DNA of 64,000 nucleotides, taken from Candidatus Hydrogenedentales bacterium. Lineage in GTDB: Bacteria; Hydrogenedentota; Hydrogenedentia; Hydrogenedentales; SLHB01. Position numbers and translations under genes: made by a program. The stretch spans positions 684,168-748,167 of the forward strand of contig JBMNGZ010000005.1 in the NCBI GenBank assembly GCA_050950105.1. The letters are read 5' to 3'. Positions 1 to 50,664 of this stretch are shown in pieces. The notes under the pieces are model-generated. The model was not told where the DNA came from. It searched no databases and was given only the letters and a program-made list of their open reading frames with translations. Position 1 is the stretch's first letter. Each line of letters begins with the position of its first letter.

Positions 1-927
1 GCAGCGGGTGGGGGGCCGGCTCCATCGCTTCAAACGACACATCTTTGCGGTGATTCGGGAAACTGATGAGATCTTTCATGTTGTGGTAGCGCGCCCCCGC
101 GATCAGCGTGTCGTATTGGGTGATTTTCATCCGTTCCTCGCAGCAATTGCAGCAGTTCCATCGGCATGGTGGCGTCGTGCACCAGCCGGGTGGGGCGGCC
201 CGCTTTCCGCTGCTTCAGCACGCGCTCCATCTTGCGCACGTGGCCTTCAGAGAAATCGTTGTCGATATCCAGCTGGGCGTCGCGGGAGATCTTGAACTCG
301 TAGGCGCCGATGCGTTCGTAGTCGAAGATGTAGAAGATGTCGTTCAGCGCATGCCGGATGAGATCGTCCACGTACATGATCGCGCCGTTGGGCAGCTCCA
401 CGAAGCGCGGGATGCTCGGGCGGGATCTCGAGAATCGCATAGCGCACCGGGTCCCCCCACATCTTCACTCCGAAATAGAGGGCGCCGTCCGTCAGCTGGG
501 GGAATGGCTGCGATTTGCGGAGAATGATCGGCACGAGGCTCGGCAGCACGTGTTCTCTGAAATAGTCGTCCAGCCAGGGGCCGAATTCCTGGGCGCAGTG
601 TTCAATGTCGTGCTCATTCAGGATCCGGATCCCCTGGGATGCAAGCTCGGACGCGATGTCTCCGTAGGCGGCGCGGAACCGTTCGTCCAGTTCTCGGGCC
701 TTGTGCGCGAGGACCTCGAGCACGTCCTGCATGCCGCTGTGCCCCAGCTCGATCCGGCGCTGCACGCTGGCAACACGCACCTTGAAGAATTCGTCCATAT
801 TGGAGGAAAAGATACCCAGGAATTTCAGACGCTCCATGGACGGGTTACGCCGGTCCTCGGCTTCCTGAAGCACCCGTTCGTTGAAGGAGAGCGCTGACAC
901 CTCGCGAATCTGATGGACGTTTTGCAT
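1..927 (-). CDS. ppk: Polyphosphate kinase 1, N-terminal ~300 codons. The gene runs off the window start. Frame break near 420-440 joins ORFs 247..927 and 30..440.
   Basis: N-terminus MQNVHQIREVSALSFNERVLQEAEDRRNPSMERLKFLGIFSSNMDEFFKVRVA matches the PPK1 N-domain. The continuation in a second frame (FVELPNGAIMYVDDLIRHAL...) shows a frameshift. Confidence 0.8.
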
Positions 928-1043
928 GCCGTTTCCTGCCCAGGGGCCCGCTTCAACAACCGGGCACGGGCTGGATGAATGCTGCGCTCTCAGGTTGCTA
1001 TGATAAGCGCTGCGATAGCCCGTTCCGGTGGGCGGAGGACTTT

Positions 1044-2107
1044 ATGAGACACCATTTTACTGCTGAATACAAGCCGTTACCGAGGTATGGGCGGTGGATA
1101 CTGCTGGCACTGGCCTTTGCGACAGTCCCTCTGGCCGGGGCACAGCCGCCGGCAGCGGCCCGGGCCGCCGGGCAGCCACAGATGTCCGGCCCGCTGGTGT
1201 GTGATGCACCGGTCTACGATTTTGGCGAACGCGACAATTTCACCCGGGTGACTCACCGGTTTCAATTGAGAAACACGGGTTCCGAGCCGCTGGACATCAA
1301 TCGCGTCTTGACCACCTGCGGATGCACCGTCGCGAACCTTAAACAAAGAACACTCGCCCCGGGGGAATCCGTTCCCCTGGAGGTCGAAGTGTCATTCGAG
1401 GGACGCACGGGCGTGTTCGAAAAGCATCTCTTCGTCCTGTATGGCGGGAAGGCCCAGAACAGAGTACAGCTCACCATGAAAGGCATGGCGGTGGAACACC
1501 TCCGTATCACCCCGCCGACAGTCAATCTGAGCAATTCCGCGATGGACCACGCCAGTGAGAGCAGCACAACCATCGAGCGCTGGAGGGGGCCTCTGCATTC
1601 AAACTGCGCGAGGTCAAGACAAATAGCCCCTACCTCGAGCTGACCGCTGAAACCAGCCCGGATGGCCTGAAACATACCATTCATGTGCGGACCCGGCCGC
1701 CCCTCCCTCTGGGCGTCTCTCCGGCGCAAATTCACGTTTTCACCGACAGCGACGCATACCCCGTGCTGGAGATCCCCGTGGCGCTCCGCGGAGTCGACAA
1801 GATCGAGGTGGTGCCTAAAGAAGTCGTGGTGTATGACAAAGGGACCGGCGATGCCGACACCGCAATCCGGTTCTTGAACGTGATACCCGGCAGCGTGTCC
1901 CAATTCACGGTAACTGGAGTCGAAACGCCCGGAGCAGGCATCGTCTCAGAGGTCATCCCACGCCCGGAGAACCGCTACCTCATCAGGCTGCAGAATCTTC
2001 CGGCGGATCCGGCCTTCGAGGGCAAAGACATCGTGATTTTGACCGATGTCCCCGGCCGGGAACGAGTTTCTGTGCCGTTGCACATCAAAAAATATCCCGC
2101 TCCATGA
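1044..2107 (+). CDS. Secreted DUF1573-domain protein. Frame break near 1575-1590; the ORF 975..1643 continues in the 1685..2107 frame.
   Basis: Signal-peptide-like RWILLALAFATVPLAGA, then FDFGE...TGSEPL...TTCGCT (the DUF1573 hallmark). The downstream frame reads KLREVKTNSPYLELTAETSPDG. A homopolymer 'aggggg' sits at the junction. Confidence 0.6.
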
Positions 2108-20912: not shown

Positions 20913-23900
20913 ATGCACTTTTTGACCCTCGCCTTGATACTCTCGGCAGCTGCGGCGGAACCGCATATCTATGTGGAAAATCTCAGCGTGTCCGCTTCGT
21001 CGCAAACCGGTGGCGCGTATGCGGTGGAAATGGCGATCGACGGTCAGCCCACAACCCGGTGGGCCAGCGCGGGCAAGGCTTCCATGCCGCAGTGGTTCGA
21101 ACTGCGTTTCGCCAAACCAGTCGAGCTGGACACCCTGCTCCTGCACATCCCCGCAGATCATCTGTATGCGGCCTGGAAGGACGTCGAAATCTCCTTTTCC
21201 GACGGTAACCCCGTCTTGCTGACCCTGGACGTCAGGGATTCGCGCCCTGTTATCCGGTTTGAAGCGCGTACAACGCAGACGGTGCGCATGACGATCCGCT
21301 CGGTGTATGAAGCCCGCCATTATGTCGGCCTTTTCGAGATTCAGGCGGCCCTTGACCCCGACCACCAGCTCGAAAGCCCGGGCGCCCCGCCACGGCCGAA
21401 ACAGAAGGACGATATTGTCGTGCGTGGCCGGACAGAGCATCCCTGCGTGAACCTCCTGCAGGCGGATGTGGATGCCGCGCGGAAACGATGCGAAGAATTC
21501 GAATGGGCCAGAGCCAGAAGGGATGCCATCATCGAGGCTGCGGAGCCCTGGTTGCGCGAGTCGGATGACTACTGGCTGCAGTTTCTTCCCGAGCCGGGCG
21601 CCGCCTATGCCTATGGATTCACGGGCGACCCATCGACGGGCGCCCGGTTTGGCAGTGCCTGGTCCGGCGCCCCCTGTACCTGGGGCCGCCCCCGGCAGGT
21701 CCGGGGCGCCAAAGGCCGCTGGTTCCCCAACGAGGAGTATCCGGATCCGGGGACGGGCTACCAGGCCGAAGACGGACGCATCCACTATTTCGTGGGCATC
21801 TACAATGCCTGGGTGACCGAGCAGTGGACCCTTAAGGCCTTGCCCGCGCTGTCGGAAGCGTATCTGCTGACCGGGGAGGAGCGCTATGCTGAGCGCGGCA
21901 TACTGCTGCTGGATGCCCTGGCATCGATCTATTCGGAGTCTACTTCCGGCTCATGGGATTATCCGAGCACCCCCCCGAGCGGACGCCTGGCCCGGCCCTG
22001 GTATCAGGTGGCCCGGACGCTCGTCATGTATGTCGACCACTTCGATTTCATGTACCACAGTCCGGCCATGGACAAACCCTCGCTCCGGCAAGGCATGACG
22101 CGCCGCGAGAACATCGTGAACCATATGCTTCTGGATGGCGCGTACTACTGCTACGAGCACAGCTATCAAGGTGCCTTGCATAACGGACACGCGGATTATG
22201 TGCGGGGCGCCCTGGCCGTAGGCTGCCTGCTCGACATCCCCACCTACATCGACAACGCGGTCACCAGCGCTTTTTCAATCTATACCATGCTCGAGAACAA
22301 CATTGACCGCGACGGGCGGTATCACGAGACGGCGCTCGGCTACGCCATCCATGCGCGAAGCCTGTATCTGACTTTCGCTGATCCGTTGTACAACCTCCGA
22401 AATGCGGAGTATCCCGAGGGCATTAACCTCTACGACGACCCAAAGATGCAGTCAACGCTATGTCTCCCCGAGCTGACGGTCATGTTGGCGGGGCGTATGC
22501 CCAATTTTGGCGATACCGCTCCCGATTTCAAGCATAAACCGATGCCTGCGCGGCCCATGTCGGCCACCGATTACGGGTATCTGGAGCGGCTCTATGCGAG
22601 AACCACAAACGCCGAGCAGCGCGAGGCGTACGGCGCAACGTTGCTGTGGCTCGCAGACGGTGATCTGGCCCGGTTGCGGAGAGAGCAGCGCGAGCCGTGG
22701 CTGCTCTGGCATGCCGCCCCAGAACCCGAAGGGAACCCGGACTTGCCGCCCGAGCTGGCTGCCCGTGTAACAGGTTCCTGGGTGGCCGGCATGAAAGGCA
22801 TGGCCATGCTCCGCTCAGGCGATCAGGCGGCACTCCTTCGCTTCGGACCCAGTCTGAACCACGGCGATCCCGATGATCTGGGCCTCTTATATTACGCAAA
22901 CGGTTACGAACTCACCTACGACATCGGCTATGGCCTGGGCAGTACCCACGTCCACTGTGGCTGGGCCTCGAGCACCGTCAGCCACGCTCTCGTCACCGTC
23001 GACGAATCCAACCAGTTCGAAGAACCCGGTTCCGGCGGCAGCCTGCTCCTCTTTGCCGATCTGCCGGCATCAAACTGGTCCAGGCCACCAGTGAAATGAG
23101 TTATCTGGCCTCCGATGTGAGCGAATACCGCCGTACCCTGGCGCTCATGGGCCGAAGCGGCTATCTTGTGGACCTGTTCCGTGTAACGGGTGGAAAGACG
23201 CATGATTACAGTTTCGGCAGCATCGGCACGAATCTCGAACCCTTTGGCCTGGATGCACTGGAGTCTCGTGAAGGCAGTCTCGCCGAGGGGTATGACTGGG
23301 GCCACCAGATCGGCATGGACGGCGATATCCGCGGCTATCCCAACAAACCGTACTGGAATCCGCCACCCGGAAATGGCTACGGTTTCTTCTTTGACGTGCG
23401 GACCGGCACGCCGCCCGCACTCTGGGGCGGCATCTGGACCCTCGATGGCGAGGAGCCGACCACTTTCCGCATGCACGTGGCCGGAGACCCGGCACAGGCC
23501 ATCTTCGCATCCGCCCCAGGCCTCTATCCCCACATGCCGCTGTCCAGCTACGTGATCGCCCGGCGCCAGTCCAGCGACGGAGCGCCTCTTGCAAGCACGT
23601 TTCTCTCGGTATACGAGCCCGCTGTCCCAGATTCACCATCGCCGCGACTGAGTTCGGTGAAACGGCTTGGTGAACAAGCCGTCGAGATGCTCCCGCGCCG
23701 ACGGTTTTGTCGATGTGCTGCTTGTGGGCGACGGCAGCTTTGACACGTCCTGTGGCCGGGTCGTTTTTCGCGGGGATGCGCTTCACTTGGAAGGAAGAGG
23801 CCGGGAGCTGACCCTCGTCGAGACGCTCGGATGCGCTTATCTGGAACTTGAGGAGCAAAATCCTCCACGAAGGTCCCGCAGCTTTTGAGGCCACGGTGCT

Positions 23901-24369
23901 GGAGGTGGACTCGCCGGGGCGGTCGGTCACGCTCGATGCCGATGTTCCGGAAGGCCTCGAGGATTTTGTGGCTGTCTTTTCAAATCCCGCCTGGACGCGA
24001 AGCGCCGCGTATCACGTTGCGGGGGCTGAGGGCGCGAATCTTCTACTGCGCGCCAATACCTTGACCCTCGGCATCGGCCGCGTCAGCGGGATACTGGGTA
24101 AACAGAGTATCGCCAGCGAGATCACCCACGAATACACCCGAACCGTCAAAAAAGGCCATTCCACCAGATTTTTCGACGGAAAACGTATTGTGGGCGCCAA
24201 TGGAGGGGAAACGCGCGTGACCACCACCGTGCCCGGAACACCCTTGATGGTCGATGTCGAGGACAGCACGGTGCTGTCGGTGGGCGAAACGTTTACCTAT
24301 TACGATCTCGGACCTGGCGACACGGTGCGCATTGCGTGGCCGCGCGTGCATTTGGCGCCGGCTGACTGA
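20913..24369 (+). CDS. Polysaccharide lyase: N-terminal F5/8-type-C (discoidin/CBM32-like) domain plus alginate-lyase/heparinase II/III-like catalytic region. Broken into at least 4 frames, with shifts near 23070, 23695 and 23860.
   Basis: Signal peptide present. AIDGQPTTRWASAG is discoidin-like. NHMLLDGAYY...HNGHADY and YYANGYELTYDIGYGLGSTHVHCGWASSTVSHALVTVDE match heparinase II/III motifs. ORFs 23096..23743, 23667..23888 and 23848..24369 continue the same protein in shifted frames. Confidence 0.6.
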
Positions 24370-24436
24370 AGCGCTTTGAGTCAGATAACGGCGTTCCTGC
24401 CGGGCTCGATGTGCTGGCAGGCCAATCACGCCATCT

Positions 24437-25025
24437 TTGAGTAGACGGGAATCAGTTGACTTCGACGCCCACGCGTGCGAGTGCGCGGCGCAGGTCGTCC
24501 GGAGTGAAGGGTTTTCTGAGGCAAAGGGCGGCGCCATTCTCGATGGCGCCCTCCATCATGCCCGAATCCTCCGAATTGACCATCGCGATGATCTGTGTGC
24601 TGGCGTAGTCGGGGTTGCCTTTGATGCGTCCGCAGATGTTGCCGCCACTGAAACCGGGCATATGCAGGTCGACGAACAGCACATCCGGCCGGAACAGAGC
24701 GATCTGGTGCCCCGCCTCGAAGCCATCCGTCGCAACCCGCCACCTGAAACGAATTCTGAGACCGCTCGAGAAAGCGCTGGATCACGGTTACGACCGATTT
24801 TTCCGTATCGGCAACCAGGATTTTCGTGCCTGCGTCGCGCAGGTCGGCGTGGATAGGGATCTTGTTGTCGCGTAAAAACAGAATCAGGTCTTCGTGTCGG
24901 ATGCGGCGGTGTCCGCCGGGCGTTTTGAACACGTGTATGCGGCCGGCTTCAGCCCATTTGCGGATGGTGTCCGGGGTGACGTGGCAATATTTGGCAACTT
25001 CTGACGTGCTGAATGACTGTTTCAT
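24437..25025 (-). CDS. Response regulator with N-terminal excisionase/MerR-type HTH and REC domain. Frame break near 24700.
   Basis: MKQSFSTSEVAKYCHVTPDTIRKWAEAGRIHVFKTPGGHRRI is an Xis/AlpA-type HTH. KILVADTE ... (frame 2) LFVDLHMPGFSGGNICGRIKGNP...TQIIAMV is a receiver domain. Confidence 0.55.
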
Positions 25026-25643
25026 CGTAACCGTTTAACCAGGGTTCGCTGCTTCGCCAAAGCAACAGGCTGCTCCAGGCGCCGCAAACATGCATTGTAT
25101 ATCCTACCAAAAAGGGATGGCAAATCCGAAAACCGCGGCGAACTCCGCAGTAAACTCACGGAAAGAAAACCCATCCCCAAGCTCAGTCTCGGGCTGGAAA
25201 TATCGGGCTGCCCACGTTTGACGCGCAAAACGGCATGCTAGCATACCGGTTAGATAAAAACAATCACAACGCCAGTGATTTAAGGGTTTTTTATGCTGTT
25301 TTCTTGCCGTATGCCTTCATGGGGTCAATGGTTGCATCTTTTGAGGCGGGATCGGTGAAATTCGATGAAGGGAAGGAAAAGTATGAAATCAAGAGACGGA
25401 AGGTTCGATTGGAAGCGCTCGCAACGAAAAACGAAGATTCGGCGCGCCTTGAGAAGGGGCAGGGTTTCGCCACTGCGTAGCCCGTCCAACGCACTGTATC
25501 GAGCATCGTGCCCTCATGCGGCGGCATCGCAACAGATACAGGTAGAGAGCCTCCCGTAATTTCTGGTAAGGTGTGACGCAAATTCCAGACCATCCGGGGG
25601 CGCCGCGGTGTGGGGCAAAACGGCGCACAGGCATGTACGCACG

Positions 25644-26619
25644 ATGAATTGGGACGGCAACAATACTGAGGATGAGCGCCGCGCCCGGCACTCGGGACCA
25701 GGCGCATGGCGGCGCTTTGGCCTGCTGCTCGCGCTGCTGGCCGTCAGCCTGATTCTCGCGGCGGCCAGGCCCCGGGCAATGTCCGTCGATTACGTCCTGA
25801 CCCTGCTTCGCCAGGTGTCCATCAACGGGATCCTGGCGGTGGGAGTGACCCATGTACTGCTGACGGGGGGCGTCGACTTGTCGCTGGGTTCGGTGGTGGC
25901 GCTGGCGGGCGTGGTCGCGGCCACCTTTGCCCATCCGGGCGACTATGCGCTGGCCCTGCCTCTGCTGCTGGGCCTCTGCACCGGGGCGCTTTGTGGCGCC
26001 GTGAACGGCCTGGTCGTAACCTGGGGGCGGGTCGCACCGTTCATTGCCACCCTGGGCATGATGACGGCGGCGCGCGGGCTTGCCTACATCATCAGTGGCG
26101 GCCGCCCCGTTTCACGCCTGCGGCCGGAATTCAATGCTATTGGCAGCGGCAGTCTCTTGGGGATCCCGGTTCCGGTGGTCCTTCTGGCGGTGGTGGCGTT
26201 GCTATCGATGATCTTCCTGAGATATACCCGGGCGGGACGGCACCTGTACGCGACGGGCGGGAACGAGGTCGCGGCGTATGCGTCGGGCATCAATACGCAT
26301 CGGGTCAAAGTGTTGGCGTACCTCCTGTGCGGCACCCTGGCAGGTCTGGCGGGCATCGTGCAGGGCCGCCCGTAGCACCACGGGCCAGGCCAACGCCGGG
26401 ATGATGTATGAACTCGACGCTATCGCCTCGGTAGTCATCGGCGGAACCAGCCTCGCGGGCGGGGTTGGCGGTGTTGGTGGAACGCTTTTGGGGGCCCTGC
26501 TGATGGGGATGATCAGCAGTGGACTGGATATGCTGAATGTCCCCTCGTATTACCAGCAGGTAGCGAAGGGACTTATCATTATTGGCGCGGTTATGCTGGA
26601 TCGGTGCGGATCAAAGTGA
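25644..26619 (+). CDS. Sugar ABC transporter permease (RbsC/branched-sugar type). Frame break near 26300-26375.
   Basis: Multi-TM protein with ...GGVDLSLGSVVALAGVVAA... and C-terminal ...DAIASVVIGGTSLAGGVGGVGGTLLGALLMGMISSGL in a second frame. Confidence 0.65.
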
Positions 26620-26656
26620 AACGGCCCGAAACGGGCACTACAGGGGAAGAGAGACG

Positions 26657-27620
26657 ATGGGGATTGTGCGAAAAACCGGGGTTATTGCAGTGATCGCCGC
26701 GTTAGCGGCTGGGACGCTCCAATGCGGCCAGGGCGGCCCTGCGCCGGACGGCGAAAGGGCCGCTGCTGCGGACGGCAAGCGTGTCATTGGCGTGTCGCTT
26801 TTGAATCTGTCGAACGAATTCATCGTGCTGCTTGAACAGGCGATGAAGGAGGAAGCGGCGAAGCAGGGCGTGCGCCTGATCGTGAATGACGGCAATCGCA
26901 GCGCCGAGCGGCAAGTGCAGCAGATCGAAAATTTCCTGCTTCAGAAGGTGGATGCCATCCTCCTCAACCCGTGTGAACACGAGGCCAGCTCACCGGCCGT
27001 CGATAAGGCCCTCGCCGCCGGCGTCCCCATCGTCAATGTGAATTCCCAGACCCGTTCCACGCCCACGGCCTTTGTAGGGTCTCGGGACGAAGAATCCGCC
27101 CAGCTTGCCATGCAGTACATCGCGGAGCGCCTGGATGGCTCAGGCCATATCGTCATGATGCAGGGATTTATGGGCCAGACGGCTCAAATTGACCGCGAAC
27201 GCGGCGCACAGGAGGTGCTGGCCCAGTATCCCCAGCTGAACCTGCTGGCGGCCCAGACCGCCGAATGGGACCGCGCAAAGGCCGTCACCTTGATGGAAAA
27301 TTGGCTTCAATCTTACGGGGAGCAGATTAACGCGGTCTTTGCACAGAACGATGAGATGGGCATGGGCGCAGTCCTGGCCCTCGAACAGGCTGGAATGAAA
27401 GAGCGGGTGGTGGTCGCGAGTGTCGACGCCATCGCCGACGCGCTGGAGGCGGTCCGGGCCGGCCGCCTCGATGCGACGGTATTTGCAAGACGCGCGAAGC
27501 CAGGGAAGCACAGCCGTGCAGACCGCCTGTGCGATTGTGTCGGGTCAACCCTTCGAAAAGGAGGTCTTCATTCCATTCCGCCTGGTCACTCTCGACAACG
27601 TCGACGCCTATCTGCCGTAA
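26657..27620 (+). CDS. Sugar ABC transporter periplasmic substrate-binding protein (RbsB-like). Frame break near 27480.
   Basis: Lipoprotein-like start. VIGVSLLNLSNEFIVLLEQAMKEEAAKQGVRLIVNDGN ... AILLNP ... the C-terminus continues in ORF 27420..27620 (QPFEKEVFIPFRLVTLDNVDAYLP). Confidence 0.65.
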
Positions 27621-27634
27621 CCGGGCGTGGGTAT

Positions 27635-29457
27635 TTATTTCGAGATCGAGAGGCGGTCGCGTTCCTCGCCATCCGCGCTGAACGTGCGCAGTTCGAGCGT
27701 ATTTCCGTCGAGACGCAGGGTCTGGTAAAGCGCGGGCCCAGAGAAGATGACATCGGCGTAGGGGGGGGCCTCGCCGCTCCAGTCGCGTGAGGGGATACCT
27801 ACGGAAACCAGGTAGATCGTGCCCTCCGCAGGAGAGGCGACCGGCTCGCCCCCATACAGCGGTTTGCTGCGCAGGTAATGGTGCACGTGGCCGGCGAAGA
27901 CCATGTCGACATGGTAGGCGTCGAAGACGGGTCCCCAGATGGCGCGCAGGCGCGGGTAATCTTCGGTGGGCGCGTACGGCGGGAAATGCACCATGGCGAA
28001 TTTCCAGGTGGCGGAGCTGTTCGCCAGACGCGTTTCCATCCAGGCCGCCTGGGTTTCCAGCGGCGTGGCGATGTCCAGTATGAGGAACAGGGCGTTCCCG
28101 TATTCAACGCTGTACATGCGTTCCGGTTCGACCCCGTCGGGTCCATTTCGGGGCAGGCCGAACATATCGAGATACATCCCCGCCCCCAAACCGTCCTGGT
28201 CGTCGTGGTTGCCGATACAGGGCACGACGGGGCACTGCCGGAACACTTCTGTAGACAGCGCGAAAAACTGGTCCCAGTCATCCCGGTAGAGGGCCCGTGT
28301 TGACCAGGTCGCCACCGAGGAGGTAGAACGCGGTCTCGGGATGACGGGCATAGGCCTGGCCCAGCAATCTCACCCCAGTGCGGTGAGCAGTGTGTGTCGC
28401 CGATGAAAACAAACGTGAACGGGGCGGAGGATGCAGGCGCCGTGGTAAACACGGTTTCGTCCGACCAGGCGCCGGTCGCGGGGTCCCCGGCCCGATACGT
28501 GTACGCGGTTCCCGGCTGGAGCCCGGTCAATGTAGCGGTAAATCGGTGGCAAACGGGGTCATTGGCGAGCAAGCGGTCCTTGATAAGCGCCCGTTCAGCA
28601 GGGACCGTTTGCCAGGGTGTGCTGTCCGAAGCCTGTTGCGGGCGATACTGGACTGCGCCGCGTTCGATGGCCGTCGTGTTTCGCCACTGGATTGTCTGGG
28701 TGGTGGTGGGCTCGTCGCTCCAGGTCAGCACCACGTGGTCAGGCTGTTCACTGGCGGGATAGCTCGTCTGCCGGAATGCGCCGATGAGATGCGCTTCACG
28801 GGCGCGCCCCCGCACCGTAGTGAGCAGGACATGCCCCGTGAGTTCGGGGGGGACCTCTTCGAGGACAAGCTCGGTCCAGTCGTGATAGGTCAACGCGCCT
28901 ACACTCATGAGGCTTTTGGAATATTCGGCGGGCATAAGGTTGGTCACGCGCAGTGGCGTGCCCGTGCGTTGCGGCCCCACGGCGACGAAGTAGTGCGGGC
29001 GGTGTTTGTCGAATCCATTGATGCCCAGCTCAACGCGGCCCGCATCGAAACGTTTCTGCCAGACCTCGTAGGTATAGTGATCGTTTCGGACGGTAAGCGC
29101 GGTTTTTTGGAACCCTGCCTCAGTCAGCCAGAACGGCATCACCGCCTGTTCATTGTGGCGCATTACCGATACCACCACAGGGACATTCACATCGAAGGTC
29201 CAGTATTTCGTGGCAAGTACCGTTCGCTCTTCCGGGGTGATGAAGGTCCCGATGGCTTCGTTGTCAAGCGCGGCCAATTCATCGATATTTAACGATTGAT
29301 ACATGCGTTCGACGACCCGATCCATGACCGTGGCCACTTCGGGGGCCGGCTCGGCCTGCACAGCAACTGACAGGCATATGAAAGAAAGGCCGGCAACGAG
29401 GGCGGCCTTTCGCAGAAAATGTGATCTCGAAGGCATCGCTGTTCTCCTTGATTGCAC
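27635..29457 (-). CDS. Secreted purple-acid-phosphatase-like metallophosphoesterase. Frame break near 28300-28350.
   Basis: Signal peptide present. N-terminal FN3-like region ... FVFIGDTH (ORF 27799..29457), then in a second frame CIGNHDD ... AMVHFPPY ... FAGHVHHY metallophosphatase motifs (ORF 27635..28351). Confidence 0.65.
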
Positions 29458-41819: not shown

Positions 41820-42705
41820 ATGACTACGACTCGAATGCTTTCCGTTGCCTTACTGGGAGCTGTCTTGTGCTTTTCGATCCTGGCTGCAGAGTCAGAGCCG
41901 GCCGTAGAACATGTGGTCGTCATTGGCGTGGACGGCATGACGGCCAAATCGCTCGAGGCTGCCGAGACGCCCAACATGCACGCGCTGATGGCAACGGGCT
42001 CATACACGCGTGCGGCGCACGCGGTCAAACCGACCGTGAGCGGCCCGAACTGGGGTTCCATGCTCATGGGGAGCAAACCCGAAACCCACGGCGTGGTGAA
42101 TAACAACTGGACGCTCGACACGGAGAATCCGTTTCCAACCGTCTTTACGGCCTTGCGCGCGGCCGAGCCGGAGGCCACCGTGGTCGCGGCCTACGAATGG
42201 GGCTCTTTTGGCCGCTTGTTCGTCGATGAAGACGTGACCCCAGCGTATCGGCGTGGATAAGGAAGCCATTGAAAACGATACCTCAGAAAACGCGGCTTCC
42301 CGCTACATCGCCACGCAGGTGGCCGAGTGCATCAAAGAGAAAAAACCTCGGCTGACCTTTATCCATCTCGACCTGGTCGATCACGCGGGCCATTCCCATG
42401 TCTACGATTCGGAAAAATATAACGCGACGGTTGGCGAAGCGGACAAGCTCGTCGGCCTCATTGTGAAAGGCATCGACGACGCCGGCATCCGAAAAAACAC
42501 CGCCATCTTCGTCGTCTCCGATCACGGCGGCATCGACAAAGGCCACGGCGGCGATACGCCCGAAGAAACCATCGTGCCGTGGATCGTGTCGGGGCGCGGG
42601 CATAGCCCAGGGCGCCGCCATCCCCGACGGCATCAGCGTCGCCCCAGACCGGGCCCACCATCGCGGCCCTCCTGGGCGCCGAATTGCCCGCGCGCTGGAC
42701 CATGA
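41820..42705 (+). CDS. Secreted type I phosphodiesterase / nucleotide pyrophosphatase (AlkP-core superfamily). Frame break near 42250.
   Basis: Signal peptide present. VVIGVDGMTAKSLE...TPNMHALMATGSYT ... (second frame) IHLDLVDHAGHSHVYDSEKYNATVGEADKLVG...VVSDHGG matches the PF01663 pattern. Confidence 0.6.
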
Positions 42706-42757
42706 AGCCCGTGACCCAGATTTTGAAAAAGTAAAAATCTCCCGACACCACCCGCAC

Positions 42758-42960
42758 GACATCGCCCCGGGGACTGCGACATAACGGCACTCCCCGGGGT
42801 ATTACGACAGGACATCGCTCCCGGGGACTGCGGCATAGCGGCACTCCTCGGGGCATTACGACATGACATCGCCCCCGGGGACTGCGGTATAACGACACTC
42901 CTCGGGGCATTACGACCCGACATTGCCCCCGGGATGGCTCCGCACGGAGCCTCCCGGGCC
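42758..42960. repeat. 54-bp tandem hairpin minisatellite, ~3.7 copies. Unit GACATCGCCCCGGGGACTGCGACATAACGGCACTCCCCGGGGTATTACGA.
   Basis: Copies at 42758-42808, 42809-42862 and 42863-42916, plus a partial copy. Each unit carries an inverted repeat CCCCGGGGACTGCG...GCACTCCCCGGGG. No unique spacers. Confidence 0.8.
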
Positions 42961-43195
42961 TCAACTAATTGCCCACAGACCATTCCTGCTTTTGATGGCG
43001 CGCACGCGGTCCGCCTCGCGGAAACCTCTGCTCTGTCATCCGGTCCGCCATCTGCCCCGGCCACCACACGGAGATCAGCCTACGCAGCTCGGAACCTCTG
43101 GGTGACCGTGTTTTTCGACCGGCGTCTGCGCACAGTTGTGCAGATTGGCGCGGAGGGCGATGGAGATGGGGGAGAGGTGATTTGAGGGAAGAAAC

Positions 43196-43274
43196 TGGTC
43201 GGGGCGGCGGGATTCGAACCCGCGACCTCCTGCTCCCAAAGCAGGCACGCTAAACCGGGCTGCGCTACGCCCCG
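43196..43274 (-). tRNA. tRNA-Pro (anticodon UGG)
   Basis: Reverse complement CGGGGCGTAGCGCAGCCCGGTTTAGCGTGCCTGCTTTGGGAGCAGGAGGTCGCGGGTTCGAATCCCGCCGCCCCGACCA. 7-bp acceptor stem, anticodon stem CCTGC/GCAGG, loop TTTGGGA with TGG at positions 34-36, T-loop GGTTCGAATCC, encoded CCA. Confidence 0.85.
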
Positions 43275-43342
43275 ACCGGATTGAGACGGAAGATAGGATA
43301 CCATAGAGGACGGGTGCGAAGCACGCGTTTCGTTGGGCGCGG

Positions 43343-43678
43343 CATTCTAATACTGAGTGCACGGTTCCTGGGTTTAGCCCTTTCCCGTCGGAGCCGTCCG
43401 TCGCTCACCGTGAGCGGCGGCGGACGATGACAGAGGGAAGGACGGCCTTTTTCCTGTTGGTGAGTCTTGAGCGAGGAGGTGGAAAAGAAAAAGACATCGG
43501 GACCCATTCGGTATTCTTGGAGATAGCAACCAACCAAGAGCGAAAGGAATCCCGATGTCCTACACCCATCTTACCCCAATGGAGCGCGCGAAGATCGAGT
43601 TTTTTTTCGCACAGGGATGGAGCTACACTGCGATTGCCTGCCAATTGGGCCGGCATCGCATGACCATTAGCCGCGGTA
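43343..43678 (+). mobile_element. IS30-family IS, 5' portion only: IRL CATTCTAATACTGAGTGCACGG, ~190-bp leader, first 39 transposase codons
   Basis: The IRL matches the rc of the locus-1 right end (21/23). The leader is ~75% similar to locus-1 internal sequence. It is truncated by insertion of the next element at 43679. Confidence 0.55.
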
Positions 43679-43691
43679 CATTCACGTTTTA
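43555..43691 (+). pseudogene. IS30-family transposase N-terminal HTH fragment (truncated after the TISR motif)
   Basis: MSYTHLTPMERAKIEFFFAQGWSYTAIACQLGRHRMTISR|GTFTF*. Matches the IS30-family N-terminal consensus MxYxHLTxxER...LGR..STISRE. Diverges exactly where the second element's IRR begins. Confidence 0.65.
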
Positions 43692-45040
43692 AGTGCGCGC
43701 AAGGCGATTTTCCGTTTTTGCAGGAAGATTTCATTGGCTGTTCGATATCCGAGGCATTTTGGGGGCCGGTTGTTTAGTCCATAGACTATCTCCTGAAGTT
43801 TCTCTAATGTAGGGGCAACCTCCTGGGTCGCCCATCCGGATTGTATTGGCAACCCCCACGCGCTGCAGTAACCTGGATGCACCAGGGCAACCCCAACGCG
43901 GCAGCGTTCCGGAATGTAGGGGCAGACCCCCGTGTCTGCCCATCCGGATCGCCCCTGCGGCTGCGTTAAAGAAGGGCAGGCACAGGGGCCTGCGCCTACG
44001 CGCTGCGCAAAGCAGTCCCCGCGCGGCCGGCCATCCGGATCGCTCACGCACTTCGACGGGACGCTGTGAGCTGGAAGTCACACCCCCCAAAATCCAAGCT
44101 GCAAAACTCCACCTCCGAATCGGTTGACGCCGATTCTCCTCTGCCCGCGGAGGATGGGTAGCCTGGGAGCGCCGACGTCCTCGTCGGCACACGGTTCAGC
44201 CCCGCCCGCGTGGGACAGGTGCGCCGCATCTCAATCTCCAGTTCGGGTTCTTATGTCCCCCGCTGATGGAGCAAAGTATGCCTCGCTGGCCAGCACCGGT
44301 TCCGGGTCTTCTGTCCCCCGCGGGCGGGGGTGGACACGCGCCCCGCGTGGCCGGGGGTGGATTGTGCGGGCAGACACGGGGGTCTGTCCCTACGCGCTGC
44401 GTAAAGCAGTCCCCCGCGGTTGCCGTCCGGATTATTTGGGCAACCCCCACGCGCTGCACAACCTGGGTATGTCGCGGCAACCACAACGCGGCAGCGTTCC
44501 GGAATGTAGGGGCAGACCCCCGTGTCTGCCCATCCGGATCGCCCCTGCGGCTGCGTTTAAGAAGGGCAGGCACAGGGGCCTGCCCTATGCGCTGCGCAAA
44601 GCAGTCCCCGCGCGGCCGGCCATCCGGATCGCTCACGCACTTCGACGGGACGCTGCGAGCTGGAAGTCACACCCCAAAATCCAAGCTGCAAAACTCCACC
44701 TCCGAATCGGTTGACGCCGATTCTCCTCTGCCCGCGGAGGATGGGTAGCCTGGGAGCGCCGACGTCCTCGTGCGGCACACGGTTCAGCCCCGCCCGCGTG
44801 GGACAAGTGCGCCGCATCTCAATCTCCAGTTCGGGTTCTTATGTCCCCCGCCTGATGGAGCAAAGTATGCCTCGCTAGCCACCACCGGTTCCGGGTCTTG
44901 TGTCCCCCGCGGGCGGGGGTGGACACGCGTCCCCGCGTGGCCGGGGGTGGATTGTGCGGACAGACACGGGAGTCTGCGCCTACGCGCTGCGCAAAGCAGC
45001 CCTCGCGGTTGCCGTCCGGATTACTTGGGCAAGCCCAACG
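43679..45040 (-). mobile_element. IS30-derived non-autonomous element inserted into the IS30 copy above. Structure: IRR CATTCACGTTTTAAGTGCGC, antisense remnant of the last ~43 transposase codons (…LEKLQEIVYGLNNRPPKCLGYRTANEIFLQKRKIALRALKT*), and a ~1.2-kb array of REP-like palindromes. Right boundary degenerate.
   Basis: The 130-bp IRR plus C-terminal-remnant 'leader' (43679-43812) is ~85% identical to 3569-3705. Its junction with the REP array is identical in both loci (…TCTAATGTAGGGG). LNNRPPKCLGY matches IS30 LNNRPRKTLGF. Confidence 0.55.
43849..45029. repeat. Two tandem copies of a 590-bp unit (43849-44438 and 44439-45029, ~95% identical). Each unit is built from GTAG-initiated REP-like palindromes and CATCCGGAT motifs.
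   Basis: Direct read-through alignment; period 590 bp. Sub-elements include GTAGGGGCAGACCCCCGTGTCTGCCCATCCGGATCGCCCCTG, GAAGGGCAGGCACAGGGGCCTGCGCCTACGCGCTGCG and GCGGGCAGACACGGGGGTCTGTCCCTACGCGCTGCG. A third unit starts and is truncated (GGGCAAGCCCAACG). Confidence 0.8.
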
Positions 45041-45173
45041 TGGTTGCGTTCCTGCTGGCGGATCGGCCAAAATGGGTCGTCCGGGTGGTTTTTGATTTCA
45101 CGGTTCGCCATACAATGAGGCGCGGGATGTTTTGTACGGAATCCCGGCGTCTGTCTGGCTGAAGGAGACGGGT

Positions 45174-45772
45174 GCATGAGGAAGGTGTTGACGTTTATCG
45201 GAGTGGTGGTGGTGGTCGGCGTCGTGGCCTCGTTTAATCACTGGGGTACCGCTTGAACAATGTCATCAATCTCCATACTGAGATGGCGAAGAACGTGCGG
45301 CAATCGCTGGTTGACCGGGGTATGCGCCCGATCCCCTGGGAATTGCTGGCGAAGACCCAGGGCGAATTCGAGTCGGTGCCCGTCTATCCGCCGGAATTGA
45401 AGGAACACGAGGGGGAAACAAGTTATGTTTGTGGGCTACGGCATGCCGCTGAGCGGCGATCTGCCGTCGCATGATCATGACCATGATCATGCCCACGCGT
45501 CGATGCTGCCGCGTGTTCTGCCGCTTCTCGAGCTTTTCAAAGGGCATGTCCACACGCAGAAATATAACGGGGTGCCGGAGGTGATGCTGACCCCTCTGCC
45601 GCTTGAATGCTATAGGAAACGCTTGCCGCCACTAAACCAGGCCGTCTATGTACGCCCGGCCGAGCCTATTGATTTTGCGGACGGCTCGGTGATCGGATTT
45701 CGAGGCACGCTGGAACTGCGGGGAAATGGAAGGCCCAAGTTTTTCTTCGTCCTCACGAACGCCGAATGTTGA
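45174..45772 (+). CDS. DUF3299-domain protein with N-terminal TM segment. At least 2 frame breaks (~45250, ~45420).
   Basis: MRKVLTFIGVVVVVGVVASF (TM), then MRPIPWELLAKTQGEFESVPVYPPELKEHEGE, then GYGMPLSGD...VPEVMLTPLPLECYRKRLPPLNQAVYVRP. This resembles the DUF3299 core 'GYMVPL...EFLLVP...PPPPNQIVHV'. Confidence 0.5.
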
Positions 45773-45853
45773 AATAATGTCGCGTGGGGGAGGGGCGTTG
45801 CGTCTCCGGCTGTGTGGGCTGGCTGCTCCGGCGCCGGGGGATGAGGAATCTCG

Positions 45854-47961
45854 TTGACCGCCAGGACGTGCACGAATCCAAACGAGGCGTTCGAGCCCGG
45901 AACGTCGTCGCTGGAGCAAACGGTGGCCGCGTTGCCCGGAATTGGCGACAAACGCGCTGAACTGCTCCGTAATCTCGACATCGTCACAATCCGCGATCTG
46001 CTGTTTTATTTACCCCGGACGTATGAAGATCGCCGCCGGGCTTGCCCGATTGCGCGCCTGAAGGAAGGCGACACCGCGACCATCCGGGCCGTGGTGGTGC
46101 GCTCGGCCACCCGGCGCCTGCGCCGCAGGCTCGCCGCCACCGAAGCCCTGCTGCGCGACGACTCGGGCGAAATCAAGGCCATCTGGTTTGGATTGGGGTT
46201 TCTCTCGCGCACGTTGACCTCCGGCAGGGAAGGGTTTTTCACGGGGACGGCCGGGAAATGGAACGGTCTGAGCCTGCGGAATCCCGACTACGAATTGTTG
46301 TCACATGACGACGAAGATCGGCTCCACACCGGCCGTATCGTGCCCGTCTACCGCCTCACCGAAAAGGTCTCCCAGCGGATGTTCCGCCGCTGGGTCCGCA
46401 TCGCTCTCGACGAAGCCCGGGATCTCGTCGAGGACCGGTTGCCTTCGGATATCGCCCGGCGCCAGGCCCATCGTGACGTGCGCCGGGCCATCGAGGCCGT
46501 CCATTTTCCCGGCAGCCTGGAAGAGGCCCGCAAAGCGCGCGACCGGTTCGCTTACGAAGAACTCCTCGGCATTCAACTCGGCATCCTTCAGGGCCGGGCG
46601 CGTCGTGCCCATGAGGAGGATGGCTACTGCCACGTTATCGACGGGCCGCGCCTGAACGCCCTGCGGCAATCGCTCCCGTTTGCGCTGACACGCGCCCAGA
46701 CGCGCGCCGTGGACGACATCCTGCGGGACATGGCGTCCGTTCGTCCGATGGTCCGGCTCCTTCAGGGGGACGTGGGTTGTGGAAAGACGGTCGTAGCCCT
46801 GCATGCGCTCGCGGCCGCCGCCGACGGAGGCTACCAGGCCGCGCTGATGGCCCCCACCGAGATCCTGGCCGAGCAGCACGCGCTGAACCTGCGTGAAACG
46901 CTCGAGCCGCTGGGCATGACGGTCGAGGTCCTGACCGGCTCGACGGGCGCCGCCCGCGCCGTCCGCCAACTCGCGGCTGCCGGCAGCGTCGACGTTCTCG
47001 TGGGCACCCAGGCGCTGATCCAGGAAAAGACCGGCTTCCGCAACCTGGGACTGGTTATCATCGACGAACAGCACCGCTTTCGGCGTCGTCCAGCGCGACG
47101 CCCTCGTGCAGAAGGGCGCTGCGCCCCGACATTCTCCACATGACCGCCACGCCCATCCCCCGCACCCTGGCCATCACGGTCTATGGCGGCATGGACATCA
47201 GCGTCATCGACGAACTGCCGCCGGGACGCCAGCCCGTCAAGACGCGCCGCGTCACCCCGGCCAAAGTCGAACGACTCTGTACGCCTACATCAGCCGAACA
47301 GGCCCGGAAAGGGTTCCAGACCTATATCGTGTGCCCGCTGGTCGAGGAATCCGACAAGCGCGCCCTCACCTCCGTGGTCCACCATTTCGAGGAGCTGTCC
47401 GCCGGACCCTTCTCGCGAACTTCGCACGGGGCTCCTCCACGGGCGTCAAGGCCTTCGCGGAGAAGGACGCGGTCATGCGCCGTTTCAAGCGAGGGCGAAC
47501 TCGACGTCCTCTTCACCACCACCGTCATCGAGGTCGGCATCGACTGTCCCTAACGCCACCACCATCGTGATTGAAGACGCGCCCCAGTTCGGGCTCACCC
47601 AGCTCCACCAGCTTCGGGGCCGGGTCGGGCGGGGCGCCGAGCCGTCCCACTGCTTTCTGCTGGGCAAGCACACGCCACGCCCGACGGCAAGAAGCGCGTC
47701 GAGGTCATGTGCGCCACCGGCAGCGGCTTCGACATCGCCGAGGCCGACCTCGAACTCCGCGGGCCCGGCGAATTCCGCGGCGTGCGCCAGTCCGGCCTGA
47801 GCGACCTGCGCATGTCGCCGACCTGCTCCGCGACGTGCGCCTGCTCGAGCAGGCCCGCCGCGAAGCCGAGGCCATCCTGCAGCACGATCCCGGCCTTGCC
47901 GCGCCCGAATATCCAGGCCCTGGCCCGGCTCGCCCAACGCTACGACGGAATGGCCCTCTGA
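45854..47961 (+). pseudogene. recG: ATP-dependent DNA helicase RecG. Full-length homology but at least 6-7 frame disruptions (~47083, ~47410-47470, ~47552, ~47690, ~47810, ~47900).
   Basis: Wedge domain present. Helicase motifs LLQGDVGCGKTVVA, IIDEQHRF|, [31 protein letters not shown]|[28 protein letters not shown] and [19 protein letters not shown] are spread over at least 6 ORFs in three frames. The 47083 shift sits in a T-run (cgctttcgg). Confidence 0.8.
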
Positions 47962-48211
47962 TCCGGGACCTGCGCGGCGGACCAGCGCAAAGTCCTGGAC
48001 GCGATGGACAAGATGGACAAGAGGGATGCCCCGGCCCCTGACGATTCCGCTGGAATCGAGGCCGCGGGCACGGCCCCTTTCGCCCATACCGCCCATGGGG
48101 TCCACACGTCCACCGCCGATGGCCACCATCCGCCGAGCGGGGCCAGGCATGACCCGTTGTCCTCCCCCGGGGTGTCTGCTATAGTAGATCCGCGGGAAGG
48201 AGGGGCTTTCC

Positions 48212-48771
48212 ATGCAACGGCCAACGGCTGTGACGGTATTCGGGGCCTTGAACATCGTTTTCGGGGTGATGGCGGTCACGCTTACGCCGCTTGTGCTCAT
48301 CACAATCAAGCTTGGCAACATCTACTTGAAAGCCTGCCTGAAGCGTCGCAAATGGAGAGCCCGCTCCAGAGGATGGTGCAGTCTCCCAGTTTTATGGCCT
48401 ACACCCGCGTGAGTGTGGCGGCGACCATGGCGGTGGGGGCTCTCCAGATTGCCGCGGGCATCGGCTTGCTGAAATTGCGGCCGTGGGCGCGTCATGTGTC
48501 GATCGGCTATGCGGTGTACAGCTGGGTGGCTACCACTGCCGGGGCGGTGATCAACTATTTTCTGATCTATGCCCCGATGCTGCAGGCCCCCTCGGGCGAA
48601 TCCGCACGCATCGTATTCGCAAGCTCCATTGTATGCACGGCCGTCGGCACGTTCACGTCGTTGATCTATCCGACGATCCTGCTCATCTTCATGTTGCGGC
48701 CCGAGATCAGGGCGGCCTTTCAACCCGGCTGGGGCACACCGCCGCCCGTTTCGCCGGGTTCGGAGTCTTGA
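48212..48771 (+). CDS. Small polytopic membrane protein (hypothetical). Frame break near 48350.
   Basis: MQRPTAVTVFGALNIVFGVMAVTLTPLVLITIKLG (TM1) continues in the other frame as ...SFMAYTRVSVAATMAVGALQIAAGIGLLKLRPWARHV...IYPTILLIFMLRPEIRAAF. Confidence 0.4.
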
Positions 48772-48788
48772 CCGTCTCATCCCCCAAC

Positions 48789-48825
48789 AAAAAAGCCCCC
48801 TGCGGGCAGGGGGCTTTTGTTTTTG
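48789..48825. terminator. Bidirectional rho-independent terminator: AAAAAAGCCCCCTGC-GG-GCAGGGGGCTTTTGTTTTT
   Basis: Perfect 9-bp GC-rich stem with 2-nt loop, flanked by an A-run and a T-run. It lies between the convergent membrane gene (+) and the sORF/PEP-CTERM genes (-). An exact copy sits at 50609-50645. Confidence 0.75.
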
Positions 48826-48845
48826 CCGGCGACGGGCGGCGGCGG

Positions 48846-48977: not shown

Positions 48978-49017
48978 TAAAGCCTTGCCAATACCTAAGT
49001 TGCGACCGCTGTCCGAA

Positions 49018-49725
49018 TCAGCTCCGGCTGCGTTTACGCGCGGCTTTGAACGCCAACGCGGCAACACCAAGCCCCAGGAGAGTCATCGACGCGGGTTCAG
49101 GAACCACTGCCGATTCGATGGTGAGGGAGGCGTTGTCCAGCGGACCGTAATACCCGCTGAAGTAGGTCCATGACGGCGAAGAGTACCAGGGATTGCCGCA
49201 CCAGGTCGGAGTCGGTACGCCGCTGTAGCTCAGCTCGAAGGTGGCGTAGAAGGGGTCCCCATTCTCTTCAAACAAGGCGGTGACTTGAGCTGCGAGATCC
49301 GCATGCCCGGCGATTTCGTTTCCATTGGCCCAATCGGGATCGGGCATGTAATACTCGCTGTAGTCCGCTGAGAAGTTGAAATCGACGATCGTTCCATAAT
49401 AGGCGTAACGAGACTCCGGATCGCTCGACGAATACCAGGGATCATCGGGCATGTTGGACAAATAGACCCAGCCCGAATCGAACCACCACTGAATGTCCCA
49501 CTGGGTATAGGCTCCCGTCCAGTTGTTGGCGAACACGAATCCAAACTGGTTGTCCCACTGAGTTCCGATTTCCCTGGTGTCAGGCAGGCCGGAGGGGCTG
49601 TTTGGGCTGGTCGACCAGGTCTGAGGCTCGGTGATGATGTTGTCATAGGTGCCGAAGATAGGCGCGGCGTGCGCCACGCCCAGGGTGATCAGACAGACAG
49701 CCAATGCCATACAGATGTTTTTCAT
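49018..49725 (-). CDS. PEP-CTERM sorting-domain protein (exosortase substrate), secreted
   Basis: Signal peptide MKNICMALAVCLITLGVAHA. W/Y/G/D-rich repeats. C-terminal VPEPASMTLLGLGVAALAFKAARKRSRS is the canonical PEP-CTERM motif (TM helix plus Arg cluster). Confidence 0.85.
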   Translation of the reverse strand: MKNICMALAVCLITLGVAHAAPIFGTYDNIITEPQTWSTSPNSPSGLPDTREIGTQWDNQFGFVFANNWTGAYTQWDIQWWFDSGWVYLSNMPDDPWYSSSDPESRYAYYGTIVDFNFSADYSEYYMPDPDWANGNEIAGHADLAAQVTALFEENGDPFYATFELSYSGVPTPTWCGNPWYSSPSWTYFSGYYGPLDNASLTIESAVVPEPASMTLLGLGVAALAFKAARKRSRS

Positions 49726-50608: not shown

Positions 50609-50645
50609 CAAAAAAGCCCCCTGCGGGCAGGGGGCTTTTGTTTTT
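50609..50645. terminator. Second copy of the AAAAAAGCCCCCTGC-GG-GCAGGGGGCTTTTGTTTTT terminator
   Basis: Identical hairpin to the one at 48795-48814. Precedes the duplicated sORF tail in the same relative arrangement. Confidence 0.7.
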
Positions 50646-50664
50646 GCCGGCGACGGGCGGCGGA

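Follow-up and report, generated by a model that had tools for sequence, protein, structure and literature searches.

Frameshifts in recG and both neighbouring genes of a Candidatus Hydrogenedentales metagenome-assembled genome are very probably an assembly artefact

Introduction

Metagenome assemblies can contain a chimeric or collapsed consensus between co-occurring relatives, as seen at rRNA operons and in strain mixtures. The locus described here is similar in that the switch between parents lies in a conserved gene, both parental sequences are public and the mosaic is unique to the analysed DNA. It differs in that its two parents belong to separate species that share only about 82% identity in this gene, and that insertions retaining both alleles frameshift the gene.

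Indels that break up genes are a documented fault of assemblies from long reads (PMC12007338). Like the false pseudogenes of such assemblies (Nanopore/PacBio), the locus shows 1-2-nt indels concentrated at short homopolymers and split open reading frames (ORFs) with amino acid similarity kept, it is part of a very long contig of a metagenome-assembled genome (MAG), and its errors are not shared by the other assemblies of this population. Unlike in those false pseudogenes, the errors are limited to three patches of an otherwise perfect contig, and those in recG appear to be a mixed-species consensus, not homopolymer miscounts. The frameshift-interrupted repair helicase also recalls the pseudogenisation of recG in reduced genomes, but the likeness is superficial only, since lineage-specific substitutions, a deletion bias and a recurrence in sister assemblies are all missing.

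RecG of Thermotoga maritima (PDB 1GM5) is matched by P0002, the intact protein of species A as defined below (E = 2.7e-151, residues 24-681), and the ORF that results from repair of the deposited gene contains the four Pfam domains of RecG, namely wedge, DEAD, Helicase_C and the RecG domain-3 C-terminal domain. In contrast, the ORF of 429 aa present in the deposited sequence comprises the wedge and only a part of the first helicase lobe, which would be an artefact.

We analyzed a stretch of 64 kb, called the window throughout, from a Candidatus Hydrogenedentales bacterium. The flanking genome is termed species A, and a second Hydrogenedentes species is termed species B. The MAG contig carrying the window is 1,164,570 bp long, which suggests a long-read assembly. 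The frameshifts in recG and in both neighbouring genes are very probably an artefact of the assembly and not mutations of the organism, a reading inferred from the comparison between assemblies. By this comparison the frameshifted recG block is to be regarded as no real feature, and nothing indicates a loss of the RecG repair helicase in this bacterium. The true recG of the organism is almost certainly the intact species A gene for a 697-aa protein, as present in the sister contigs L002 and L003.

Results

Sister assemblies of the same population carry intact genes

Contigs from JGI and Logan are identical to the window, without a single mismatch or indel, across about 51 kb and represent the same population. 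The JGI contig L002 was compared with positions 35844-57961 and showed 0 mismatches and 0 indels except within 42241-48314; L003, which aligns from 44438 on, is likewise free of mismatches and indels outside this block. Both contigs encode an intact RecG of 697 aa, an upstream protein of 199 aa and a downstream protein of 186 aa. The JGI contigs might share the raw data of the MAG and would then be an alternative assembly instead of an independent sample. The disagreement between JGI contigs and MAG means that one of the assemblies is wrong, and the intact version is the one that agrees with all relatives. Coordinates of the features discussed below are collected in Table 1.

Table 1. Features and error patches in the 64-kb window
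Feature	Position	Strand	Description
Third error patch	1..1576	.	18 substitutions and 2 insertions in ppk (5-748); 1-nt deletion at 1576
Second error patch of the same kind	23066..28367	.	8 indels (6 homopolymer run-length), 0 substitutions
Phosphodiesterase/sulfatase-like gene, 303 aa in relatives	41820..42734	+	three 1-nt homopolymer insertions: 42241, 42594, 42645
Error-dense block	42241..48314	.	32 indels and about 254 substitutions relative to otherwise identical contigs
Zone 1	42241..45767	.	18 indels, 1 substitution; nearly all short G/C (or A/T) homopolymer run-length changes
Upstream gene, 199 aa in relatives	45176..45777	+	five homopolymer indels
recG coding region	45854..47961	+	2108 nt here versus 2094 nt in 17/17 reference genes
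recG 5' part, species A type	45854..46039	+	identical to L002; 47/47 fixed A/B sites are A
recG core, species B type	46040..47076	+	1035/1037 identical to L001, L004 and L019; 81.9% to A
A/B fine-scale mosaic	47077..47914	+	838 nt; contains all 14 extra bases
recG 3' end, species A type again	47915..47961	+	parentage comparison
Downstream predicted membrane-protein gene, 186 aa in relatives	48212..48771	+	1-nt deletion at 48314 (TTT -> TT)

RecG homology is continuous but divided into twelve frame segments

The homology to RecG is unbroken over 697 codons, yet a reference-guided frame map divides it into 12 frame segments. The frame breaks result from 11-12 insertion events, adding up to 14 nt. 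Six listed ORFs with RecG homology were found in all three forward frames (45854-47143, 47106-47570, 47140-47553, 47183-47800, 47571-48041 and 47707-47961). A first-pass annotation had described RecG homology over about 700 codons in at least six ORFs and three frames, with well conserved amino acids in each piece, and both observations were confirmed, the latter by the frame map. Because gapped tblastn searches with intact RecG merged frames and were too coarse, three-way and 18-way DNA alignments were used instead. References were 17 recG genes, four of the A clade and 13 of the B clade, mostly from separate samples or assemblies. The 18-way alignment contains 14 columns occupied by the window only and no deletions in recG; none of these 14 extra bases is present in any of the 17 related genes.

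Deletion of the 14 bases yields a single stop-free ORF of 697 aa. The wedge domain (PF17191) is detected with E = 1.2e-27 in the 429-aa ORF of the window and with E = 2.8e-27 in the repaired ORF. In the deposited sequence Helicase_C and RecG_dom3_C lie in frames other than that of the 429-aa ORF, and a complete superfamily-2 core is not found in a single frame; such a core is present after removal of the 14 bases as well as in the intact sister contigs. The gene is also intact in L057 and L058, and the disabling changes do not recur in these two contigs or in L002 and L003.

The recG sequence alternates between two species

Species B is about 75-80% identical to species A in the flanks and 82% in recG, and both parental sequences occur separately in public assemblies. 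Along recG the parentage changes from A to B, then to an A/B mix and back to A. No indels are present in the species B tract (46040-47076), and a substitution unique to the window is located exactly at the A to B junction (46040). L001 proved imperfect as a species B reference, since the final ~100 nt of its recG diverge from the 12 other B sequences, and L004 together with JGI loci of the B clade was therefore used for the analysis of fixed differences.

In the mosaic zone, 101 fixed A/B sites could be scored, of which 26 carry the A allele and 75 the B allele, and a third base was found at none of the 101 sites. A runs test gave 41 runs compared to 39.6 ± 3.8 expected for a random order (z = 0.36), showing that the allele is chosen independently from site to site and not in tracts. 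In the whole of recG only 1-3 substitutions are unique to the window.

The extra bases (at 47077, 47120, 47272-3, 47292, 47413, 47446, 47492, 47551, 47675-6, 47811-2 and 47912) fall at A/B differences. At six of 11 insertion events the window holds the local strings of both parents; at one such site species A reads CCGCTTTGGC, species B CCGTTTCGGC and the window CCGCTTTCGGC. At most of the other events the extra base is the allele of the other parent. Event 47675 marks a change from B to A that includes a slip of 2 nt, and at 47446 the complete local string of neither parent is present. One frameshift had previously been assigned to a T homopolymer near 47083; this is not the case, since the T run is equally long (3 nt) in the window and its two parents, and the extra base is a C near 47081. 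A single 40-mer covering three insertion sites gave no match in genome and metagenome contig collections, evidently without the window's own record, which speaks for a variant unique to the window. Among the 23 listed of the 54 cluster members, P0128 alone joins an A-type N-terminus to a B-type core. The properties of a mixed haplotype were found: two separate parents exist, the product is their mosaic without changes of its own, and the extra bases mostly supply the allele of the other parent where the parents differ.

A true interspecies recombination tract, in which species A would have gained about 1-1.9 kb of species B recG and only the indels would be sequencing noise, was considered and is very unlikely. 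The segment 46040-47076 is clean and almost completely of species B type inside a species A genome, so that viewed by itself it might be a real tract, and recombination could plausibly act on conserved genes; however, the adjoining 838 nt alternate randomly between A and B, unlike a conversion tract, and the extra bases are mostly alleles of the other parent, which requires both parents in one consensus step. The unique substitution right at the A to B junction also speaks against this explanation. Furthermore, the combination of A N-terminus and B core is present in none of the listed cluster members or the 17 loci, the window's own aside, and the sister assemblies, which are exact elsewhere, carry a pure A recG. 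There is likewise only a slight chance that the B tract reflects a real and very recent interspecies gene conversion carried by some members of the population, the mosaic arising from co-assembly of recombinant and non-recombinant genomes. Should this apply, Hydrogenedentes species of only ~80% identity would exchange homologous DNA preferentially at recG, as a hotspot.

Indels are confined to three patches of the window

Altogether, 43 non-redundant indels were found in the window, all inside the three patches 1-1576, 23066-28367 and 42241-48314. These patches span about 13 of the 64 kb, and the remaining ~51 kb contain no indels; this clustering is far beyond chance, in agreement with the earlier suggestion that it is informative. 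The first patch was scored against L037 and L039, and the Logan contig L038 is an exact match to the window from 3883 onward. The second patch cuts a gene for 1151 aa into ORFs of 728, 215 and 173 aa. Where species A is the sole parent, the ratio of indels to substitutions is 18:1 (42241-45767) and 8:0 (23066-28367). Outside the mosaic zone 24 of the 26 indels are run-length changes, affecting homopolymers no longer than 7 nt, and at these sites species A and species B agree on the run length. Zone 1 spans a 54-nt tandem repeat in three copies, a tRNA-Pro, a remnant of an IS30-like HTH and a tandem duplication of ~589 bp.

The first-pass annotation had delimited the broken block as 45174-48771 between flawless flanks. 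The breaks inside it are present, but the block of errors opens already at 42241 and also disrupts the phosphodiesterase/sulfatase-like gene; topA and the 4.5-kb ORF named as flawless are indeed identical to the references, while the other two patches are not.

That recG and its two neighbours were genuinely inactivated by very recent frameshifts, possibly favoured by the repeat-rich locus next to them, was one of two options offered in that annotation and is extremely unlikely. The frameshifts stand in the deposited sequence, NCBI annotated the truncated 429-aa product, and amino acid conservation inside each recG piece is high. In natural bacterial mutation, as known from mutation-accumulation studies, substitutions far exceed indels and the spectrum leans towards deletions. 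Here, 0 substitutions over ~51 kb in comparison to the sister assemblies stand against 43 indels in three patches, and all 12 of the 12 recG events are insertions at A/B differences, most of them adding the allele of the other species. In addition, the identical population has recG and its neighbours in intact form, in the very assemblies that match ~51 kb of the window, and similar breaks occur in unrelated genes 20 kb away. A biological connection of the recG breakage to the recombinogenic repeat locus next to it found no support; the connection is a technical one, as assembly and polishing are difficult here owing to repeats and strain-variable content.

The possibility that plain low-coverage homopolymer indel noise lies behind everything, recG included, is negligible: the run-length changes outside the mosaic zone and the long contig, pointing to long reads, would fit, but only three of the 12 recG insertions are of the homopolymer type, the T run at 47081 is unchanged, and the about 253 accompanying substitutions all match species B or species A alleles, which random noise would not produce. 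An assembly error, the second option of the annotation, is the correct class of explanation. Homopolymer indels explain the two neighbouring genes and the region 42.2-45.8 kb, but not recG itself, where the consensus appears to be of mixed species. Programmed frameshifting, diversity-generating retroelements and targeted hypermutation were dropped in view of 12 shifts in 838 nt at A/B differences and similar breaks in unrelated genes.

A probable origin of the errors

The artefact probably arose as follows. The source is probably a long-read-style MAG of species A, with a contig that would be base-perfect for the most part and a few patches of 1.5-6 kb left short of the final accuracy. The patch 42241-48314 would combine two types of error, run-length miscalls at short homopolymers and a cross-species consensus in recG. 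Errors of the first type probably broke the phosphodiesterase-like gene, the 199-aa upstream gene and the downstream membrane-protein gene. For the second type, species B sequence would have been drawn into the consensus within recG, which is more conserved than any other gene nearby, with the result of one pure B stretch followed by 838 nt in which A and B are mixed column by column. Wherever the alignment placed the A and B alleles as one insertion and one deletion instead of a mismatch, both bases would be retained, and such double alleles would explain why there are 14 extra bases and 12 frame segments. Candidate steps for creating the mosaic are the overlapping or collapsing of reads, polishing with reads mapped across species, and the filling of gaps. 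The proposal builds on direct observations, namely the mosaic, the extra bases from both parents at most events, the lack of these bases in every other assembly and the patchiness of the errors.

Consequences for the use of the assembly

The value of this locus is cautionary. The deposited MAG has a truncated 429-aa "DEAD/DEAH box helicase" (MGI6460346.1), which corresponds to the ORF of the window including its frameshifted tail, and at least 10 other fragmented genes in the 64-kb window. Comparative studies could misscore the lineage as lacking RecG, and pseudogene counts as well as gene-length statistics would be inflated. Such an artefact can be diagnosed by a two-parent mosaic that is random from site to site, extra bases representing both alleles, a large excess of indels over substitutions and confinement to patches. 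All four signs can be checked without reads where sister assemblies exist.

Genes flanking recG

Both neighbours of recG are broken, as the first-pass annotation had stated. The indels of the upstream gene are located at 45245 (+GG), 45415 (+G), 45723 (+G), 45737 (-C) and 45767 (-A), and an unbroken version of 199 or 200 aa is found in L002, L003, L057, L058 and the loci of the B clade. The previous label DUF3299 of the gene rests on a sub-threshold Pfam match (E = 0.087, 13.4 bits compared to a cut-off of 22). Further upstream, the phosphodiesterase/sulfatase-like gene is present as the split ORFs 41691-42260 and 42253-42705. On the other side of recG, the membrane-protein gene carries its single deletion, and an additional C is inserted at 48077, upstream of this gene.

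recG in the Window

The protein fragmented in the window was identified by database search as RecG of Candidatus Hydrogenedentes, whose relatives are uniformly 697 aa long. As the first-pass annotation had correctly described, the ORF listing (43-51 kb) and the database search place the RecG-like translation on six ORFs in all three forward frames. The first of these encodes 429 aa, with a nonsense tail directly after the DEQHRF motif, and its residues 1-409 show 94 and 87% identity to the best clusters, P0001 (species B) and P0002 (species A, to which the window flanks belong), respectively. Including the frameshifted tail, this ORF is identical to P0128 (NCBI MGI6460346.1), annotated as 'MAG: DEAD/DEAH box helicase [Candidatus Hydrogenedentales bacterium]' carried by a 1,164,570-bp contig; so large a MAG contig suggests a long-read or hybrid assembly. 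Long-read assemblies are known to suffer from indels that fragment genes (PMC12007338).

Deletion of the 14 window-only bases yields a stop-free 2094-nt ORF, whose 697-aa product contains the domains RecG_wedge, DEAD, Helicase_C and RecG_dom3_C and shares 94.4% identity with B and 90.5% with A. The A-type RecG matches T. maritima RecG (1GM5) with E = 2.7e-151. The gene at this locus is an ordinary RecG, and its breakage is no biological novelty. A species B MAG also carries recG in two pieces (P0125 and P0126; HPV37123.1 and HPV37122.1, on one 19,965-bp contig) of 354 and 343 aa, with a nonsense tail closing the first. Calls of a split recG are thus recurrent in Hydrogenedentes MAGs and should not be taken for gene loss.

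Comparison With Sister Assemblies

Two species A contigs, JGI 3300060803 Ga0591958_0000355 (L002) and one from JGI 3300060823 (L003), are collinear with the window and encode P0002. Window positions 35844-57961 match them with 0 mismatches and 0 indels except within 42241-48314, where 26 of the indels are insertions in the window and 253 of the substitutions lie between roughly 46040 and 47914. The comparison was extended to the whole window with further segments from the same JGI contig, together with Logan contigs (runs SRR31066172, SRR31066156, SRR31061295), which showed an exact match apart from three patches with 43 non-redundant indels. The sister contigs encode intact RecG (697 aa), upstream (199 aa), downstream (186 aa) and phosphodiesterase/sulfatase-like (303 aa) proteins; all four genes are broken in the window, which bears out the earlier observation that both recG neighbors are disrupted.

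Features and differences from the sister contigs in the window
Feature	Position	Strand	Remark
Error patch	1-1576		18 substitutions, 3 indels
Error patch	23066-28367		0 substitutions, 8 indels
Error patch	42241-48314		~254 substitutions, 32 indels
Phosphodiesterase-like gene	within 41618-45043
Tandem repeat	42765-42933		54 nt x3
tRNA-Pro(TGG)	43196-43274	minus
IS30-like HTH fragment	43555-43692
Tandem duplication	43832-45040		~589 bp, copies ~94% identical
Run-length change	45245		GG to GGGG
Run-length change	45737		CCCC to CCC
Run-length change	48314		TTT to TT
RecG-like ORF	45854-47143	forward	ORF listing
RecG-like ORF	47106-47570	forward	ORF listing
RecG-like ORF	47140-47553	forward	ORF listing
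RecG-like ORF	47183-47800	forward	ORF listing
RecG-like ORF	47571-48041	forward	ORF listing
RecG-like ORF	47707-47961	forward	ORF listing
Terminator-like hairpin with T run	48788-48842, 50609-50663		55 nt, two exact copies
PEP-CTERM gene 3' duplication	49016-49326, 50288-50597		~310 nt, ~91-93% identity

Alleles of Two Species in recG

The window was aligned with L002 (A) and L001 (B), and in a five-way alignment also with L004 (GTDB representative DAIQLC01) and L019 (bioreactor metagenome). A and B are different species, with ~79.5% identity over 38.7-41.6 kb and ~75% in the upstream gene. Up to 46039 the window recG is identical to A; positions 46040-47076 match B at 1035 of 1037 sites (A versus B only 81.9%), 47077-47914 lie about midway (91.6% identity to A, 92.4% to B; A versus B 83.3%), and from 47915 on the window is again identical to A. 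At 46040, exactly at the A-to-B switch, the window has a unique substitution (Pro to Ala, RRRPCPIA to RRRACPIA) where both parents share one base; it resembles a scar left at the junction by the consensus process.

In a wider set of separate assemblies, recG measures 2094 nt in 17 of 17 references (4 A-clade, 13 B-clade) and 2108 nt in the window, which has 14 columns of its own and no deletion. All insertion events are located at points of A/B difference, and in most of them both alleles were kept (A CCGCTTTGGC, B CCGTTTCGGC, window CCGCTTTCGGC; A GGCCTGCG, B GGCGCGCG, window GGCGCTGCG; A AGTGAACGCTCTG, B AGTCGAAGACCTG, window AGTCGAACGACTCTG), the local strings of both parents being present at 6 of 11. 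In most other events the added base is the allele of the other parent, next to a site settled in favour of one parent; at 47675 the window switches from B to A with a slip of 2 nt. The shift formerly assigned to a T homopolymer (~47083) has a different origin: the T run at 47081 comprises three bases in A, B and window alike, and the added base is a C. A 40-mer over three insertion sites had no match in the genome or metagenome collections.

At the 101 fixed A/B differences in 47077-47914 the window carries the A allele 26 times and the B allele 75 times, in 41 runs (39.6 ± 3.8 for independent draws, z = 0.36); the choice between successive informative sites is therefore random, unlike the pattern of a recombination tract. 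A genuine conversion tract between species, overlaid with noise, could explain the clean B segment alone, but is very improbable, since it leaves the random mosaic beside that segment, the both-allele insertions and the lack of any other A/B hybrid unexplained. Neither the 17 recG references nor the 23 listed members (of 54) of the cluster include another A/B hybrid, P0128 being the only listed member with an A-type N-terminus and a B-type core.

The recG of L001 (ENA ERZ15185539 NODE_3090, coverage 0.73) is identical to the 12 other species B sequences up to about window-equivalent 47330, followed by 5 scattered differences and, from ~47861, by 47 densely packed ones and a divergent 3' end. 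This contig, whose coverage is very low, may be a chimera in its own right or derive from a recombinant strain.

Errors Outside recG and Origin of the Frameshifts

In 42241-45767, 47915-48314 and 23066-28367, 24 of 26 indels lengthen or shorten runs of up to seven identical bases. A and B agree on run length at the error sites outside recG wherever B sequence is available, which marks these indels as plain miscounts rather than mixed alleles. Hardly any substitutions occur there (one in the stretches of 42241-48314 outside recG, none in 23066-28367). In bacteria, substitutions normally outnumber indels about tenfold and deletions prevail among indels, and the pattern outside recG is the reverse of this spectrum. 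The error zone contains features that are hard to assemble or polish, namely the tandem repeat, the tRNA gene, the IS30-like remnant and the tandem duplication.

Taken together, the frameshifts of the recG region are very probably an assembly artefact with two components, both of known classes of assembly error. Homopolymer miscounts would have been left unpolished over the repeat-containing patch, and a mixed A/B consensus across species would have formed in conserved recG. If an aligner merging two diverged sequences wrote each mismatch as a paired insertion and deletion, and both insertions survived into the consensus, both-allele insertions would be the expected outcome. Genuine pseudogenisation is even less probable than a conversion tract: identical sister assemblies carry intact genes, lineage-specific substitutions are absent, the recG indels are all insertions at A/B difference sites, and like damage affects unrelated genes 20 kb away. 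The recent recG inactivation considered in the first-pass annotation is thus unsupported, and nothing supports the neighboring repeat locus as its recombinogenic cause. The other option, homopolymer indel errors in a low-coverage stretch, was right in substance, but pure homopolymer noise throughout is almost certainly insufficient, since just 3 of 12 recG events are of this type and ~253 substitutions agree with one or other parent. This public MAG holds patches of false pseudogenes, and sister assemblies can reveal such patches without reads.

Further Patches and Neighboring Segments

The non-repetitive patch at 23066-28367 has one-base indels relative to the JGI and Logan contigs that break up a 1151-aa F5/8-type-C/DUF7402 gene, leaving ORFs of 728, 215 and 173 aa; response-regulator, ABC-permease, periplasmic-binding-protein and metallophosphatase genes are also disturbed. 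In the first patch, polyphosphate kinase (5-748) contains the 18 substitutions and two non-homopolymer insertions, and the third indel, a deletion of 1 nt at 1576, affects a DUF1573 gene; the patch has the look of a further conserved gene whose consensus mixes strains or species.

Species B (L001, L004, L019, L047-L056) lacks the ~3.4-kb segment 41618-45043; there, a 97-aa gene directly joins a 200-aa gene. The segment may be what is left of an element that integrated beside the tRNA gene. Downstream of recG, the hairpin and the 3' part of a PEP-CTERM protein gene, its copies 1.27 kb apart, form a local segmental duplication found in L002 as well.
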